From assembly GCA_021399395.1 (NCBI GenBank), contig JAAFKJ010000110.1, positions 1 to 10,938 on the forward strand: a stretch of DNA of 10,938 nt, read 5' to 3'. The stretch comes from Candidatus Heimdallarchaeota archaeon. Lineage in GTDB: Archaea > Asgardarchaeota > Heimdallarchaeia > Heimdallarchaeales > Heimdallarchaeaceae. Both the position numbers and the translations under genes were made by a program. The notes under the pieces were generated by a model, which did no database searches, had not been told where the DNA came from, and saw only the letters and a list, made by a program, of their open reading frames with translations. Below are positions 1 through 7,000 of this stretch, piece by piece. Positions within the stretch are counted from its first letter, which is position 1; each line of letters starts with the position of its first letter.

Positions 1-535
1 ACAGAGAGGTAGTGCATGGCCGTCTCAAGCTCGTGCCGTGAGGTGTGCTCTTAAGTGAGTAAACGAGCGAGACCCGCGCCCCTATTTGCTAAGAGCAAGC
101 TTCGGCTTGGCTGAGGACAATAGGGGGATCGCCATCGATGAAGATGGATGAAAGGGCGGGCCACGGCAGGTCAGTATGCTCCAAATCCCCAGGGCCACAC
201 ACGCATCACAATGGACAGGACAATGAGAAGCGACTCCGAAAGGAGAAGCGGACCTCGAAACCTGTTCGCAGTTGGGATTGAGGTCTGTAACCGACCTCAT
301 GAACATGGAGCACCTAGTATCCGCGTGTCATCAGCGCGCGGAGAATACGTCCCCGCTTTTTGTACACACCGCCCGTCGTTGCAACGAAGTGAGGCTCGGT
401 TGAGGCTGAGGCGTTAACGGTTCAGTCGAAACTGGGTCTCGTGACGATGCAAAAGTCGTAACAAGGTATCCGTAAAATTGGTGAGAGGCAAGTCTCCCTT
501 TTCGGTAAGGGGAACCTGCGGATGGATCACCTCCT
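1..535 (+). rRNA. rrs: 16S rRNA gene, 3' portion (about E. coli 1040 to the 3' end), archaeal and divergent; 5' part lies outside the window
   Basis: Universal SSU motifs: GTGCATGGCCGTC, AACGAGCGAGACCC, TTGTACACACCGCCCGTC (1391 region), AAGTCGTAACAAGGTA (1492 region), GGGGAACCTGCGG (h45) and anti-SD GGATCACCTCCT ending at 535. GC content is much higher than in the flanking coding DNA. Confidence 0.98.
475..508 (+). other. 34-nt intervening sequence / putative BHB-type intron in 16S helix 45 (after the E. coli A1513 equivalent)
   Basis: Removing AAATTGGTGAGAGGCAAGTCTCCCTTTTCGGTAA restores canonical h45, UAUCCGUAGG-GGAA-CCUGCGGAUG. The insert folds into a hairpin (GAGA 483-486 / UCUC 493-496, GCAA loop), and its boundaries match BHB cleavage geometry. 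Confidence 0.8.
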
Positions 536-706: not shown

Positions 707-3700
707 TCAGAAGAAATAATTCTTCATTAATTCAAATTCCCTAAGCCAATTTTCTTCTAACCATCTCCTTAAATCTGAGATTTTGGTACAAGATGTTTTA
801 TTCTTCTGTAAAATTAAATCATATATTGAAGCATTAAGAATATCAATAATATTACGTATCTTATAATTATAAAATGGATAATACTTCCAATCTTCCTTAT
901 GTCTTATTAATCCTGTTTGAGTAACAGTAACTCTTGCTAGTTTGTAAGAATTATTTCTTTTGTCAAGAAGCAACGTAGAAATTTCATCAACTGCTATTTC
1001 TTTCTTGGAACAAGCTTCAATGAAAGCCTCGTCTGAGAGGATTCTAGTAATCACAAAATCTTCTTGTCGTTTCCACCATTCAAGAAACATCATAATTATA
1101 GAAATACTTGGAATTTTACCACTAGATCCGGATGGAATTGGAAGATTATTAGTTTTCAACCAATTGTACCAAGATTTAGAGATCTTACTCATAGTATTTC
1201 CTTTTTGAGTGAATGAGAAATATCTATAATTCGAATCCCATCTAAATGGGAAGTTAAGTAAAATATCATCGTCTTCGAGTTGAATACCTACGGTTTTTGA
1301 AGATGAAATTAGATCAACAACTCGGTTATTATTATCTATTAATAGTACTCCTGTTTTTGGTTTTGTATCTCTTCTAAAGGAGTAAGTTGGAGGTTTATAG
1401 ATTTCTTCTGTATCTTGATTGAGAAGAAAGAAATCAAATCCTTCACTCTGATAGATCTCAGTTGCTAAAGTAAATGGATCATCTTCATCTTCGAGGAAAA
1501 CCTCAAAATTTGTTAATAAGGAGGCTAATTTTGAAAATAGAGAATTCTTTTCCTTCTCCCCCAATATCTCTTTGAGTTTTTTATTGGTAAGAAAATCAAA
1601 AGTAATAACTTGTACTACATCATAAAAATAAGAAATTCCACGTTGATTTACAGGTTGTTCATCTAGTCTATCCATTTTAGAAAGAAAATCTGATGAAGTG
1701 ATGGTATCAAGCCCTAAATGGCACCTACCACCATACAGGATACTAAGGAGGTCCAATAATTCTGAGTTTAATAGACTCAAGATGAATTCTCTTTTCAAAC
1801 TAGCGTATCGAATAAGAATCTTATTAATTGATTCGTCTTGGGAAAACTGATTATGGTTTATTAATAAATTCAAGTGTTTGTGTACAGGGTCTGTTACTTC
1901 TTTAAAACCATTAAGACTTAACATAATTTTACCTTGTTTAATCTGAAAACTTGGTAAGAAGAAATCATGTGATATATCTATCTGTTTACCTTGTACCGTT
2001 ATTTTTACATTAGATTCTAGATGTGTTTTCTTAGAATTGTCAGAAAATCGAATAGCATGACCATTTTGTGCTAGACCCACCAATCGACTAAATTCTGAAA
2101 TTCCTTTTACAATTTGCCTTTTTTGTTTAACTGATAACATTCCTTGAGAGATTAAGTATGAAAGGGCATTAAGGAAATCACCGTTGAAGAATTTAATTAA
2201 CCAATCATTTCCAATAAGATGATATTGTCTGTTTCTATCATTGAATAATTTCTTAATAAACAATGGAACTTCTTTCTTTCCCAAATATGAAGGAATTGGA
2301 AAAAGAGATTCTATAATAGGGGTTTGTGTTAAATACTGAAAAAGTTGTTTCTTATTCAATTCTCTACGTTTTAAATGGTATCCAAATTTTGGGACATATT
2401 CCCAAGGATAATAAGTAGCATGATCACCTATTTTATAGTCCAAAAAAGTTATTTTGAACAATCCCTTTTCTTTCATTTCAAAAACAATATCATCAAAACC
2501 ATTATGAGCATCTGATATTTCATCATAAAATCCTCTCAGTAGATTAGTAGAACTATTCCTTTGAAAGATATCCTCTTGAACATGTATCTTCTTCCAGGCT
2601 CTCTGTAAAAACTCTCTTTCCGCATTTGTGAGAACTACACTCTTCACCCCTTTTCCTCTTTTTATGAAATTTAAATATACTTCTGCTTCCTTTTCTGTCA
2701 GTTTATTTGCATACTCTAATGTTTTCTTCTTCTCTTCTTCCGTTTCCCCCACTATCTCATCATACATCTCCTGAAATCTCTCAGATACAGACAGTTTCTC
2801 TTGTGTACTTTCCTTCATCTCTACCTTCTTTTCTTTAGTATCATATTTATCTGGAACAATTTTTTCTTTTAGGACCTTCTTTTCTGTTGTTAGTTTCCTG
2901 TTCTTTACATACACTCTTGAAATCGGATAATATGTCCCCAATTCAGGTACCTCTTCATGTAATTGTTGCAAGATCTTATCTGTAGTTTCTACGGGTATGT
3001 TTGCTAGTTCTGCTATTCTAGATGCAGGAGTCTGGATCTCAATTTGGGCTTGATTATTAGTTTCTTGTTCAAGTTTGTGAATGATTACCTCTCGCACCCG
3101 TTCTTTCTGCTTAGAAGTTACCACTTCTTTTCTCCATTTATCCCTAGTTCGAACATTTGCTTCAATAGCTTGGTGGATAGTTTTCCAGTTGGTCAGATAA
3201 GCTCCTCCATCAAAGAATGTCTCGGAAGTAATTCGTTCTTCCTTAGCATAGATCTTAGCTAACTCTTTTGATGGCTTGATCATCAAACCAAGAAAGAAAG
3301 GAGAGATGAAACCAAGGAGTAGAGTAAAGTCTTGACTACCGAGAATTAATGTTATATTAAGACTTAGAAGGAAAAAGGCTATAGGGACCATAAAAACTAC
3401 AATCAACACTCTTACTCGTTTGTAGTTATCTTCGAGAAAAGTCATCTCAGATGTAAATTGAAAGAGATAGAGGAAAGTTAGAGAAAAAACACCTATGCTA
3501 GCATAAAGTAGCAAGTAGATAGTTAAAGCAAGCTCTGGTAGATTAGAAAATAGGTTGAGTACTGGGTTTATCGCAGATATTTTCTTAGAAGCGAATAATA
3601 GGATAAGGAAGTTTGTTCCTGATACAATTAGAGCAAAGAGAATTAGACGAAACTTGAACTTCTTCTTTTTAATCCTAGTTTTATAATAATTGCTAAATTT

Positions 3701-3841
3701 AGAAAACAGGCACAAGATGGAATCTACATCAGCAAAGAATAACTTGATTTTACCACCTAGTTTCTTGAAAGAAAACAGACGAATGTCTGAATAGAATATA
3801 GTAAGCCAGATTACAATAGAGAAAATATTTGCAAAGATCAT
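707..3841 (-). CDS. Large hypothetical membrane protein: about 5-6 N-terminal TM helices, a charged/coiled region, a putative winged-helix (PCI-like) module and a large uncharacterised C-terminal cytoplasmic region; possibly the 3' part of a gene fused with 3838-5712
   Basis: 1044-codon ORF with hydrophobic segments in the first ~190 aa. An HTH-like segment SRIAELANIPVETTDKILQQL...GTYYPISRVYVK lies at ~aa 272-314. ATGA overlap with the upstream ORF at 3838-3841. Confidence 0.85.
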   Translation of the reverse strand: MIFANIFSIVIWLTIFYSDIRLFSFKKLGGKIKLFFADVDSILCLFSKFSNYYKTRIKKKKFKFRLILFALIVSGTNFLILLFASKKISAINPVLNLFSNLPELALTIYLLLYASIGVFSLTFLYLFQFTSEMTFLEDNYKRVRVLIVVFMVPIAFFLLSLNITLILGSQDFTLLLGFISPFFLGLMIKPSKELAKIYAKEERITSETFFDGGAYLTNWKTIHQAIEANVRTRDKWRKEVVTSKQKERVREVIIHKLEQETNNQAQIEIQTPASRIAELANIPVETTDKILQQLHEEVPELGTYYPISRVYVKNRKLTTEKKVLKEKIVPDKYDTKEKKVEMKESTQEKLSVSERFQEMYDEIVGETEEEKKKTLEYANKLTEKEAEVYLNFIKRGKGVKSVVLTNAEREFLQRAWKKIHVQEDIFQRNSSTNLLRGFYDEISDAHNGFDDIVFEMKEKGLFKITFLDYKIGDHATYYPWEYVPKFGYHLKRRELNKKQLFQYLTQTPIIESLFPIPSYLGKKEVPLFIKKLFNDRNRQYHLIGNDWLIKFFNGDFLNALSYLISQGMLSVKQKRQIVKGISEFSRLVGLAQNGHAIRFSDNSKKTHLESNVKITVQGKQIDISHDFFLPSFQIKQGKIMLSLNGFKEVTDPVHKHLNLLINHNQFSQDESINKILIRYASLKREFILSLLNSELLDLLSILYGGRCHLGLDTITSSDFLSKMDRLDEQPVNQRGISYFYDVVQVITFDFLTNKKLKEILGEKEKNSLFSKLASLLTNFEVFLEDEDDPFTLATEIYQSEGFDFFLLNQDTEEIYKPPTYSFRRDTKPKTGVLLIDNNNRVVDLISSSKTVGIQLEDDDILLNFPFRWDSNYRYFSFTQKGNTMSKISKSWYNWLKTNNLPIPSGSSGKIPSISIIMMFLEWWKRQEDFVITRILSDEAFIEACSKKEIAVDEISTLLLDKRNNSYKLARVTVTQTGLIRHKEDWKYYPFYNYKIRNIIDILNASIYDLILQKNKTSCTKISDLRRWLEENWLREFELMKNYFF

Positions 3842-5712
3842 TGCAATCCACGGTGAAATATCGAAGATAGATATAAGTGAATTAAGACCATAACTCGTAG
3901 ATAGAGCAATAACTGTAGCAAAAATAAGACGAATATTACATCTTTATCTTGCATCCTTTCAGAGGAATGCTCAGTAGAACTTGATGAAGCTCTTTGTTTT
4001 CTTTTATCTCTATATGTTTTTTTGTTGAAGAACCAAAAGAAGATGCAAACATATATCGCTAACATCCAGCTGGTAGAAAGTGGGGGAGTGGAGGTATGAG
4101 AGGAATCTCCTTCTACTGGTGGTTGAGTTATGGTTGCCTGATACTTAAGCTGCTGAATAGTAACAGGTGTATTTAGTTCATAGAAACCAAAAATAATCTT
4201 GATCTCATGGTAACCTTGTGCCAATTCAAAAGACTTGCTCAGATTTGCGAACCCAAGTTCATCTACTTCTTGAGTAAGTTGAGTAGTTCCATTAATCTTC
4301 ACTATAACGTCCAGCCTATCGAAGGGGTGCTCATAAGTGGAGGATAGAACAAAGTTTATAGCTAAGTTAACATAGGAAGAAGCGGTAGAAGTTCGAAATA
4401 CACTATAATAACTCAAGGAATAGAACATTGGTTGAGGATTAGCTGTTTCTTCTTCAGAGAGGAGAATGTCTAAGGAATTATCTTCGAGTTCCAAAATCGT
4501 GATTGCATCTATCCTACTAGAGTGCAAGATGATGAACTCCCCCGTACCTGTAGCAGAACCATGGATGGTAAATGAGAGTTCTTCATGGTATTCAGTTGTA
4601 AAAGTACGAATAACCAAACTATTCAGTTCATGAGATTGTTCTGAATAATCAAGTTGTCCTTCCTCTAGAATTGTTGAACCACTGCTCAAGAAGTAGGTTA
4701 GATAAGGGAAGATTTTCATCCCTAAGCATTGGTAATCAATAATCATATAGAGCACTTGATCTGAAAAGTACTTGGAAGGTTTAAGGGAGGAAAGATCAAA
4801 AGAATAGGTAAACTCATTTCCATCCCATTGAAAAGAATCTAGGACACTTTCCTCAAGAAAAGAACCAACTAATGAACCTTCTAAACTAATATCATTGATT
4901 TTTATGATTTCATAGGATACACTTACAGAGAAGTTAACATTTAGTAGATTAAAACCTGTATCAGGATCAATCATAAATTCCATAGAATTGGTTTTATTGG
5001 AGGTAAAACTCTTTTCTGCTACTAGTTTGTTATTAAGAGATACATAGACTACTCTGTCAAAAGATTGGAAATAGTTAGTAGTAAAGGAAAGTGAGAGATT
5101 CAGCAAAACTGTATCATTGTAATTATAGAATGCAGTAGATACTTGTCTTGATTCCCAATAATTTATTGTACCTTCAAAAGATAACCAATCTGGATAAACG
5201 GGAAGAATAGAATTTTCTTCATTCAGAACGGGGATATCTATCTTCTCGATTGTTGTTTCAAGGATGGTTAAAAAACCTACAGAACTAGAAGATTGACCAC
5301 TGCAAATCACATAAACATCTATATTACCAGCATAGGATGTAAAAAGAGTAAATGTCTCAGTTAAATTGTGAATTGTCCCATCCTGAAATAGCGTATCAAT
5401 AATGAATTCAGTAGAAGAGTTGTCGAAAATAAAAGTAACATTCAACCCATCTTGTGTGCTTGTTGTTCCGTTTACCATGAACAAGAGGTCTATTTTGTTA
5501 ATTCTATCTAGTTCAACATAATCAAAGTGTAGAAGAAATATCTTTTTCTGAAATGTGTTGTTGAAAGTAAAAAACAGTTCTTCTGAGGTAGAAAAAATTT
5601 TACGTTCATCCTGAGTGGGATCACAAGAGGATACATTGGTGTAAGTAGGAAAGATGCTACTAACTAAACAAACTAACAGAACTATCTTGATGTACCTGGA
5701 ATTGACTTTCAC
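3838..5712 (-). CDS. Secreted/cell-surface protein: signal peptide, about four beta-rich domains (internal duplication), Pro/Ser/Thr linker, TM helix and basic stop-transfer segment
   Basis: 624-codon ORF with GTG start. N-terminus MKVNSRYIKIVLLVCLVSSIFP is signal-like. Many N-x-S/T sequons. QPPVEGDSSHTSTPP linker, then WMLAIYVCIFFWFF-NKKTYRDKRKQR. Confidence 0.85.
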   Translation of the reverse strand: MKVNSRYIKIVLLVCLVSSIFPTYTNVSSCDPTQDERKIFSTSEELFFTFNNTFQKKIFLLHFDYVELDRINKIDLLFMVNGTTSTQDGLNVTFIFDNSSTEFIIDTLFQDGTIHNLTETFTLFTSYAGNIDVYVICSGQSSSSVGFLTILETTIEKIDIPVLNEENSILPVYPDWLSFEGTINYWESRQVSTAFYNYNDTVLLNLSLSFTTNYFQSFDRVVYVSLNNKLVAEKSFTSNKTNSMEFMIDPDTGFNLLNVNFSVSVSYEIIKINDISLEGSLVGSFLEESVLDSFQWDGNEFTYSFDLSSLKPSKYFSDQVLYMIIDYQCLGMKIFPYLTYFLSSGSTILEEGQLDYSEQSHELNSLVIRTFTTEYHEELSFTIHGSATGTGEFIILHSSRIDAITILELEDNSLDILLSEEETANPQPMFYSLSYYSVFRTSTASSYVNLAINFVLSSTYEHPFDRLDVIVKINGTTQLTQEVDELGFANLSKSFELAQGYHEIKIIFGFYELNTPVTIQQLKYQATITQPPVEGDSSHTSTPPLSTSWMLAIYVCIFFWFFNKKTYRDKRKQRASSSSTEHSSERMQDKDVIFVLFLLQLLLYLRVMVLIHLYLSSIFHRGLQ

Positions 5713-5821: not shown

Positions 5822-7000
5822 ATGAGATTCTCAAAATATAGATTATTATTCCTAATCTCGATTACTGTTTTGCTTTTCAGTACAGTCAAGTATATTCATA
5901 CTAACAATAGAATTGACCCGGGGTCTATTCTACAACTTAATCTATTTGATTTAGAGGAACACGAACCAATAACGATTAGTACAAATGAGGATTTTCTCTC
6001 CTTCCCTGGCTCTGGAACTCTGGAAGATCCATATTTGTTTGAAAACTATAACATTACTTCTGACTACCCTTTTGGTATTCGCATAAGTTCGACTACCAAA
6101 CATTTTCTTATCAAAAATTGCTTTATTGATGTAACACTAACAGGCATCTTAATTGAAGACATTTTTGAAGGATCAGTAAGGATTGAAAATAATATAATAA
6201 CAGATAGTGATTATGAGAATGGAAAGGGAGTAGTAATATATTTTGCAACAGAGGTTGTTTTAGAGGAGAATGTTATTTGCAACCATAAAACATATGGACT
6301 CGTTATAGCAGGGGCAAATGCTTGTTACATTGTTAGGAACTCCTTTTCGAATAATGGTAAAACAGGAATGGCAACAGCATATGTTAATATATTGGGGATT
6401 TTCGAAAATGAATGCAATGAGAATGAAAACGGAGGGATGTATGTTTTTGAATCAGATTTAGCAATAATCAAGGAAAATGATTGCTCAAGTAATGGCGAGG
6501 AGGGGCTGCTCCTAGAGCAAATAGAGGGGTGTGTTGTTCAAAATAACACTATAGAAAGAAATAGAATATGGGGGATGAGAATGAAAGGAGCAGAAGGGAG
6601 TTTGTTAAACTATAATTTATTCAGAGATAATGAAGAGAGAGGATTGTATCTTGATGAAAATAGTAACAGAAATTGGATATATCAAAATGATTTCATAAAT
6701 AGCAGTAGAACAGGTTACTCACAAGGGAAAGATGAGGGGGAGGAGAATCGTTGGTGTGACGAGTTTATGAAAACAGGGAATTTTTGGGATGATCTTGGAG
6801 ATGAATTGGAATACACATTAGATGGAGATTCAAATTCAGTAGATTTATACCCATTAAGGCAAGGAAACGTTATACAAACTCAGCTGATTAATGAAACGAA
6901 TTTACTAAGCATTCCTTGTACAATTGGGTTTATGCTAATTGTTTTTGTTTTAACAGTGAAGAAGAAAATCCCACAACCCTTATTCTCTACTCTTCTATAG
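5822..7000 (+). CDS. Membrane-anchored right-handed parallel beta-helix (PbH1 / NosD-like) surface protein
   Basis: N-terminal hydrophobic signal; PITI...FPGSGTLEDPYLFENYNIT motif; ~22-residue repeats of the type GxxIxxxxxxxIxxNxxxxN; GNFWDD and DLYPL C-terminal motifs; C-terminal TM helix followed by KKK. The stop TAG (6998-7000) lies inside repeat copy 2. Confidence 0.9.
   Translation: MRFSKYRLLFLISITVLLFSTVKYIHTNNRIDPGSILQLNLFDLEEHEPITISTNEDFLSFPGSGTLEDPYLFENYNITSDYPFGIRISSTTKHFLIKNCFIDVTLTGILIEDIFEGSVRIENNIITDSDYENGKGVVIYFATEVVLEENVICNHKTYGLVIAGANACYIVRNSFSNNGKTGMATAYVNILGIFENECNENENGGMYVFESDLAIIKENDCSSNGEEGLLLEQIEGCVVQNNTIERNRIWGMRMKGAEGSLLNYNLFRDNEERGLYLDENSNRNWIYQNDFINSSRTGYSQGKDEGEENRWCDEFMKTGNFWDDLGDELEYTLDGDSNSVDLYPLRQGNVIQTQLINETNLLSIPCTIGFMLIVFVLTVKKKIPQPLFSTLL

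Follow-up and report, generated by a model that had tools for sequence, protein, structure and literature searches.

The 16S rRNA gene at the start of the window analysed here (the whole stretch of 10,938 nucleotides from Candidatus Heimdallarchaeota archaeon, assembly GCA_021399395.1, contig JAAFKJ010000110.1) is interrupted in helix 45 (h45) by 34 nucleotides (nt) at positions 475 to 508. We consider it likely that this insert is a miniature intron with a relaxed bulge-helix-bulge (BHB) motif, and we infer its excision by the splicing endonuclease EndA and the ligase RtcB. Helix 45 carries two universally dimethylated adenines and adjoins the anti-Shine-Dalgarno tail, which makes it about the last place where an interruption would be expected. 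The significance of the insert comes from a family of homologous or analogous inserts in relatives, since the single sequence in the window beats chance weakly. The genome of the window (G000, with the window as the start of its contig C9) is a fragmented metagenome-assembled genome (MAG; 2.82 Mb in 201 contigs, 81.8% complete); loci in relatives and in metagenome contigs are given L numbers. The elements of the interrupted helix are as follows.

1..535, plus strand: 3' third of an archaeal 16S rRNA gene (RF01959 model positions 979-1478, 404.3 bits, E = 5.6e-117, cmscan)
466..474, plus strand: 5' exon half of h45, ending ..UCCGUA (cmscan structure line; identical in intronless relatives)
469..472, plus strand: exon strand UCCG of the 4-nt central helix, opposite 503-506 with three Watson-Crick pairs plus U/U
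473..475, plus strand: 5' bulge UAA, with a predicted EndA cut between 474 and 475 (BHB geometry; the rule matches the genome's own tRNA introns)
475..508, plus strand: the 34-nt insert, a candidate intron free of open reading frames (ORFs); the register 474-507 gives the same product
476..502, plus strand: intron hairpin (outer helix h'), pairs 476-477/501-502, 480-481/497-498 and 483-486/493-496, closing on a 6-nt loop (487-492)
503..506, plus strand: intron strand CGGU of the central helix, pairing with exon UCCG
507..509, plus strand: 3' bulge AAG, with a predicted EndA cut between 508 and 509 and no exon-side closing helix (H1 = 0)
509..524, plus strand: 3' exon half of h45, GGGGAACCUGCGGAUG (cmscan), containing A513 and A514

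Between the two strands of h45, cmscan with RF01959 found 42 nt where the model has 8, and the order read in the sequence was ..GGUAUCCGUA, then the 34-nt insert, then GGGGAACCUGCGGAUGGAUCACCUCCU. A513 and A514 are what we take to be the equivalents of the dimethylated A1518 and A1519. In the predicted central helix, C470-G505, C471-G504 and G472-C503 are paired and U469 is opposed to U506, so that UCCG/CGGU with its 3-nt bulges reaches three of four pairs, as do the genuine tRNA-Trp and tRNA-Ala introns of the same genome. The 5' bulge is flanked by the central helix and h' (eight pairs, interrupted), and the exon-side helix h has no contiguous pairs; because no exon-side helix closes the 3' bulge, the motif is of the relaxed HBh' type and not a canonical hBHBh'. 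Deletion of 475-508, or of 474-507, left a 46-nt string from anchor to anchor that is identical to that of the same-genus genome G009 and of five genomes of the same family. An earlier, sequence-only reading of the window had proposed this split of h45 by an ORF-less insert, the weakness of the exon-side stem and two cuts, UA/A and AA/G, that would regenerate canonical h45, and all of this holds. The pairs that it listed are likewise all present, including A476-U502, A477-U501, G480-C498, G481-C497 and GAGA (483-486) with UCUC (493-496). Its GCAA tetraloop was mistaken, since G487 and G492 cannot pair and the loop is therefore the 6-nt GGCAAG. The insert has a G+C content of 15/34 (hand count), below that of the host rRNA (0.55). 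As a repeat element it had no second copy in G000, where chance matches of at most 14 nt were found. A group I or group II intron was rejected: there is no ribozyme core, cmscan at gathering thresholds found SSU_rRNA_archaea alone, and 34 nt is too short.

Under the favoured reading, exon UCCG (469-472) would pair in the precursor with intron CGGU (503-506) and not with its mature h45 partner, a 3-nt bulge would come after each central strand, and the far side of the 5' bulge would be closed by the intron hairpin. EndA would then cut behind the second base of each bulge, between 474 and 475 and between 508 and 509, and RtcB would ligate the exons and probably circularise the intron. Canonical h45 could then fold and be dimethylated by KsgA. 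The cleavage, the joining of the exons, the circular intron and the timing with respect to KsgA are to be taken as steps of a proposal.

Inserts in the same helix recur among relatives. Of 61 related genomes searched by DNA, 35 gave a match, with 30 loci, and among the 27 loci with both h45 anchors 17 were uninterrupted and 10 interrupted. In a pattern search of 400 Asgard species genomes, anchors 40 to 110 nt apart were scored as interrupted and anchors at normal spacing as uninterrupted; 12 genomes fell into the first list and 154 into the second, with none in both, giving 12 interrupted among 166 assessable genomes. Further copies were added by one scan of a named genome collection (16 loci) and one of a metagenome collection (9 loci). 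Together these yielded 14 distinct interrupted h45 segments that return to canonical h45 once one or two blocks are taken out, equivalent to 16 inserts of 31 to 39 nt. The inserts lie at four sites spanning about 16 nt of h45 (approximate Escherichia coli positions, obtained by counting back from the 16S 3' end).

Site A', 1512/1513: one insert, in G041 (another family of the same order)
Site A, 1513/1514: six inserts, in G000, G010, G017, G014, G005 and G004
Site C, 1519/1520, directly after the KsgA-methylated adenines: two inserts, in Hermodarchaeum and Freyarchaeia
Site B, 1527/1528: seven inserts, in G010, G001, G022, G025, G017 and two metagenome contigs

The back-count agrees with the earlier placement of the window's insert after the equivalent of E. 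coli 1513. Contigs of the rRNA-derived sequencing run X11 pass at 535/536 into poly(A), which marks the mature 16S 3' end as ..CCUCCU(A). Homologues at site A are found in five other species of the genus (those listed above), several of them in separately deposited records (DXJF01, JABCTC01 and JABLTJ01), and the named relatives with the same inserts are Heimdallarchaeota MAGs, in keeping with the Asgard host suspected from the letters. Site B inserts (L003 in G010, L023 in G017, L006, L009, L010, L064 and L068) are 31 nt long, lie in the 3' strand of h45 and have a near-canonical BHB motif with UGCG/CGCA, an intron stem of 9 to 10 bp and two exon-side pairs. G010 and G017 hold introns A and B in one helix, 14 nt apart. 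Site C inserts, in more distant carriers (L033/L059/L062, from Candidatus Hermodarchaeum yapensis and a metagenome contig, and L045/L060, from Freyarchaeia CP147778.1, locus 6457-6500) are 32 nt long and lie inside the GGAA loop, where both methylated adenines form the predicted 5' bulge; the Hermodarchaeum motif is clean, and the Freyarchaeia carrier is a complete chromosome. The G041 insert (L025/L034/L058; 39 nt), one base upstream of site A, has four central pairs (GCCC/GGGU) and a 10-bp stem and looks like an independent colonisation of h45. Seven further segments with anchors 40 to 110 nt apart (L038, two at L042, L047, L065/L069, L066/L067 and L070) resisted reduction to canonical h45 and do not count among the 16. 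These segments look bacterial in type or are assembly oddities. Among these loci, L065-L069 and L070 (metagenome contigs) and L042 (a Fimbriimonadales MAG) have bacterial-type small-subunit (SSU) 3' ends in CCTCCTTTCT, with 24 to 49 extra bases in or near h45 that may be true h45 expansions or bacterial intervening sequences.

The BHB motif was scored by setting the four exon bases that end two before the 5' junction against the four intron bases that end two before the 3' junction, with 3-nt bulges. Each of the 16 inserts has a register in which h45 is restored and, at the same time, three to four central pairs are followed by 3-nt bulges. The exon tetranucleotide varies by site and the intron complement tracks it (UCCG with CGGU or CGGA, GCCC with GGGU, GGGG with CCCU or CUGC, UGCG with CGCA). 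Each intron was shuffled 20,000 times and the joint frequency of a central helix and a contiguous intron stem at least as good as observed was recorded (for G000, at least three of four central pairs and at least two contiguous intron-stem pairs).

G005, G041, Hermodarchaeum and all seven site B introns: below 5e-5 (printed as 0.00000)
G004: 0.0004
G014: 0.0006
G017: 0.003
G000: 0.026
G010: 0.027
Freyarchaeia: 0.028

At site B, folding without constraints gives the BHB structure, its two exon-side pairs included, as the minimum-energy fold or at most 0.6 kcal/mol from it. An ungapped alignment of the seven site B sequences has 16 pairs with 98.2% of cells paired, and three of these pairs are changed on both sides (G-C/A-U, U-A/C-G and G-C/A-U; 7 cells). 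None of 500 shuffles reached the observed covariation score, and slid registers were 16 to 52% paired; because the set consists of seven related sequences, the covariation is supportive and is not to be read as a probability. At site A, CGG(U/A)-AA precedes the 3' junction in all six introns (CGGU in five, CGGA in one) and the hairpins differ. In G004, CGGA turns the U/U opposition into U-A and so completes the central helix (4/4 pairs). As the MAFFT alignment of site A is not structure-aware for G014, G005 and G004, covariation was not counted there and constrained folds of each sequence were used instead; these gave an intron stem in 6/6, built from different sequences, that of G005 reaching 10 bp.

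Presence and absence vary among close relatives, and alignment with related MAGs gave homologous inserts with clean presence or absence. Eight of nine assessable species of the window's genus are interrupted, G009 being the sole exception, and so is one of six in the family's other genera. G001, the closest relative with 98.5% identity over 1-474, has site B without A, and G000 has A without B. In a 16S tree built from exons only, the sister pairs G014 (A) and G009 (none) and G025 (B) and G029 (none) had support of 96/93 and 99/100, respectively. Most of this tree is unresolved, with 8 of 12 inner branches open and a bootstrap that had not settled, so these two supported pairs alone were used; G017 was omitted, being represented by a short piece. 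The loss of the intron is exact in every case. Across 13 full-length 16S sequences, 11 of them from the family, h45 is the only place within the gene with a minority insert of at least 12 nt. Comparison with relatives thus leaves the interpretation of the h45 inserts as predicted introns well supported.

The enzymes that the proposal calls for are encoded in G000. EndA is present as two paralogues, 183 and 180 amino acids (aa) long, both with N-terminal and catalytic domains. The first matches catalytic alpha subunits, those of A. pernix (3p1z_B, E = 8.3e-37), S. tokodaii and P. aerophilum, and its K39 is aligned with A. pernix Lys44 in the Crenarchaea-specific loop region; the second is nearest to the enzymes of M. 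kandleri, ARMAN and M. jannaschii and matches beta subunits too. The enzyme is probably a two-paralogue (alpha-beta)2 EndA. On the subunit type, a point raised by the sequence-only reading, the two paralogues and the specificity-loop lysine in one of them are found in the genome, and the heterotetramer itself is a prediction. In the available text of PMC3241643 and PMC6379350, relaxed motifs are cleaved efficiently by (alpha-beta)2 and epsilon2 EndA only and the loop Lys44 is required, and a preprint (10.64898/2026.10.13.758758), as far as its accessible part goes, counts two EndA paralogues in 44 of 60 Asgard genomes.

The tRNA genes of G000 served as a control for the geometry. The cut rule given in the sequence-only reading, behind the second base of each 3-nt bulge, recovers the canonical 37/38 introns of tRNA-Leu, tRNA-Trp and tRNA-Ala; tRNA-Leu has four of four central pairs and a 6-bp anticodon stem, and tRNA-Trp and tRNA-Ala have three of four each, like site A. 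The ARAGORN introns of tRNA-Asn and tRNA-Ser were rejected as controls because they show no clear BHB motif. ARAGORN reported 17 tRNA genes in G000, five with introns, of which two appear to be miscalled; interruptions that lie beyond its model probably affect many of the tRNA genes, in keeping with reports on other Asgard archaea.

Several observations weigh against the intron reading. The G000 motif is relaxed and the weak end of its family, with U/U in its central helix and no exon-side helix, and stands marginally above shuffles (0.026), and its intron stem of 2 + 2 + 4 pairs is broken by a bulged U and two U/U mismatches. The fold of 455-535 has a z score of -0.26, with 74 of 200 shuffles at least as stable; left unconstrained, it takes the native lower h45 stem and not the BHB, whose conformer (-8.9 kcal/mol) lies 0.9 kcal/mol above the free local minimum (-9.8 kcal/mol), in which the bulge is of 1 nt and not 3. 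At site C, the Freyarchaeia motif is poor (three of four pairs, with an internal G/G), and according to the consulted part of the preprint cited above no Asgard EndA has been assayed so far. The free fold, in which the insert is an appendage on the native lower stem, also suits a different account, that mature 16S rRNA retains the insert, which would stand out from h45 as a side hairpin and would give the dimethyl-A helix an expansion segment without precedent, and the read data, with the insert interior uncovered in all four runs described below, do not speak against it. We nevertheless regard retention as very unlikely. At four positions the 3' segment of the insert complements the exon tetranucleotide two bases upstream of the junction, for which an expansion offers no reason. 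Expansion segments occupy peripheral, variable sites and are graded in length, whereas these inserts lie in the conserved core of h45, are present or absent as a whole with exact restoration, and are not graded in length. They stand within stem strands or right after the dimethylated adenines, where they would break the helix or the GGAA loop, and KsgA/RrnaAD is kept in the genome (E = 4.6e-52). In addition, the available text of a study of Lokiarchaeota (PMC7594248) found no SSU expansion segments there.

Reads of four runs were mapped to positions 1-700 of the window (min_likeness 93): X1 (probably DNA, 0.77 of sampled words), X7 (RNA), X11 (a synthetic long-read library labelled metatranscriptomic, for which the RNA label is a guess) and X15 (RNA). 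None of the four covered 481-504, including X1, the best holder of the flanks, so that the reads did not confirm the insert, a point against the proposed intron; as no run covers the insert interior, its absence from the RNA runs says nothing. A joint 473 to 508, skipping 34 nt, was found in two contigs of X1, one of X7 and two of X11, with sides of 21 nt, and such joints are often from other organisms. One X7 contig matches 292-474 with no differences and continues with eight letters, GGGGAACC; its exact exon was found in G000 only, among the loci then compared. X11 and X1 each hold one 148-nt contig consisting of 335-474 and eight unplaced letters, and those of X1 do not fit the intron. Since X1, a probable DNA run, seems to hold the joined form too, a near-identical intronless strain would explain the RNA contigs as well as splicing does, a further point against our interpretation.

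The same data bear on whether the insert is real. A mis-join in a fragmented MAG, or a dead, non-expressed gene copy, would agree with a contig that begins within 16S, with the lack of cover of the intron interior in the run that best holds the flanks, and with an X1 contig that is identical to 335-474 and then departs from the intron. Such an origin is extremely unlikely in our view, as variant homologous inserts occupy the same place in the assemblies of five other species, several of them deposited separately. The remainder of the gene scores as an intact SSU in cmscan, it is the only assembled 16S copy in G000 (blastn of 1-474 against the whole genome returned the C9 match alone), and none of the 12 interrupted genomes also has an uninterrupted h45. 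On these last two grounds, the interrupted copy is taken to be the working 16S gene.

Fragmented rRNAs occur in other lineages, and the BHB evidence argues for cleavage, not for ligation. The insert might thus be excised by EndA or another RNase with the exons left unjoined, so that h45 pairing would keep a 3' piece of about 27 nt attached to the long 5' part, much like bacterial intervening sequences. We judge this outcome highly improbable. RtcB is present in G000 (E = 1e-163), and a cut at site A would leave only seven h45 pairs to hold the anti-Shine-Dalgarno tail. The X7 (292-474) and X11 (335-474) contigs, which continue for eight letters past the cut, speak weakly in the same direction, although an intronless strain could be their source.

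If the inserts are indeed spliced introns, it can be asked whether they do more than persist as tolerated parasites. An unlikely but possible answer is that they act as a lock on the last SSU helix to fold. Intron CGGU would mimic the mature partner CGGA and hold exon UCCG for as long as the intron is present, and neither h45 formation, nor dimethylation by KsgA, nor the last trimming of the 3' end could proceed before EndA and RtcB had acted. The interruption of 8/9 species of the genus, the status of h45 as sole interrupted place in 16S and the colonisation of four sites are consistent with such a role and are no proof of it. Were it true, the last stage of SSU assembly would be coupled with the splicing machinery, and this in the archaeal lineage that stands nearest to eukaryotes.

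The 5' side of the 16S gene is truncated by the contig end, and 23S does not lie next to 16S downstream in the window. The DNA 3' of the gene consists of protein genes with about 32% G+C, of which two follow.

707-3841, minus strand: ORF of 1044 aa, directly 3' of 16S, no Pfam or PADLOC match
3838-5712, minus strand: ORF of 624 aa, overlapping the ORF at 707-3841, no Pfam or PADLOC match

A mobile element is placed right behind the 16S gene of a published Heimdallarchaeum genome in the part of PMC8813620 consulted. In G001 (L071, G001:C8:7700-10700), about 115 nt that follow 16S, together with a degenerate copy of its last 12 nt, are duplicated at 234-351 and 2340-2399; the copies lie about 2 kb apart and enclose a 530-aa ORF, for which Pfam gave no significant hit. 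The 2-kb gap behind 16S in this genome was considered as an intron and rejected, as it is this duplicated spacer segment around the ORF. A search of G000 itself with RF01959 returned no match with eight candidates scored, despite the 404 bits from cmscan, and was treated as a search quirk.

If the insert is spliced, BHB rRNA introns reach Asgard archaea and new, tightly clustered sites, Asgard EndA has a natural rRNA substrate, and the order of h45 folding, KsgA action and 3'-end maturation relative to splicing becomes a question. All four sites lie beyond the usual 1492R amplicon end and are therefore invisible to amplicon surveys. Annotators of rRNA may misplace the 3' end or the length of interrupted 16S genes, and 3'-terminal probes or primers would fail on genomic DNA in a genus with interruptions in 8/9 assessable species. 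Eukaryotic SSU group I introns are found at S1506, S1512 and S1516, a known hotspot in the same helix that invites comparison, with no common descent shown. These introns, and the nearest published archaeal intron site, which in the accessible text of PMC6125680 is that of a DPANN group I intron (SSU/1498), share with the h45 inserts a small SSU region beyond the 1492R end; group I introns are self-splicing ribozymes of hundreds of bases, in contrast to the 34-nt, ribozyme-free insert.

A literature search, which covered neither supplements nor subscription journals, found no report of an Asgard rRNA BHB intron or of an archaeal h45 intron. Among tRNA introns, the available parts of PMC6379350 and PMC3241643 describe relaxed hBH, HBh' and BHL motifs cut by (alpha-beta)2 or epsilon2 EndA, and heavily interrupted tRNA genes are described for Asgard archaea in PMC11291895 and the preprint cited above, as far as these were accessible. 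The h45 insert resembles the relaxed tRNA introns in its predicted enzyme and cut geometry, its one well-formed bulge, and the two EndA paralogues with the loop lysine; it differs in having an rRNA substrate and in the position of its strong outer helix, which is on the intron side (h') here and on the exon side in the tRNA introns of G000. Closest in kind are the archaeal 16S BHB introns of Thermoproteales, Desulfurococcales and Aigarchaeota, which include a small (<50 nt), hairpin-forming class (Jay and Inskeep 2015, PMC4496867). The loci given in the available text of that survey are 374, 548, 722, 781, 803, 901, 907, 908, 919, 978, 1093, 1205, 1213 and 1391; none of them is in h45, in line with the earlier statement that known archaeal 16S introns sit elsewhere. 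Shared with the introns described there are an archaeal 16S host, the absence of an ORF, a length below 50 nt, a hairpin, a BHB-type junction motif, a patchy distribution among close relatives and a G+C content below that of the host rRNA. Relative to the same text, the h45 inserts differ in their site, in their host (mesophilic sediment Asgard archaea of Heimdallarchaeota type, against thermophilic TACK archaea), in the clustering of four sites within h45, with two introns per helix in G010 and G017, and in the lack of any other internal insert of at least 12 nt in the 11 aligned 16S sequences of the family. Archaeal 16S BHB introns are themselves already known, and what the h45 inserts add to them is a new site, a new lineage and an unusual clustering.

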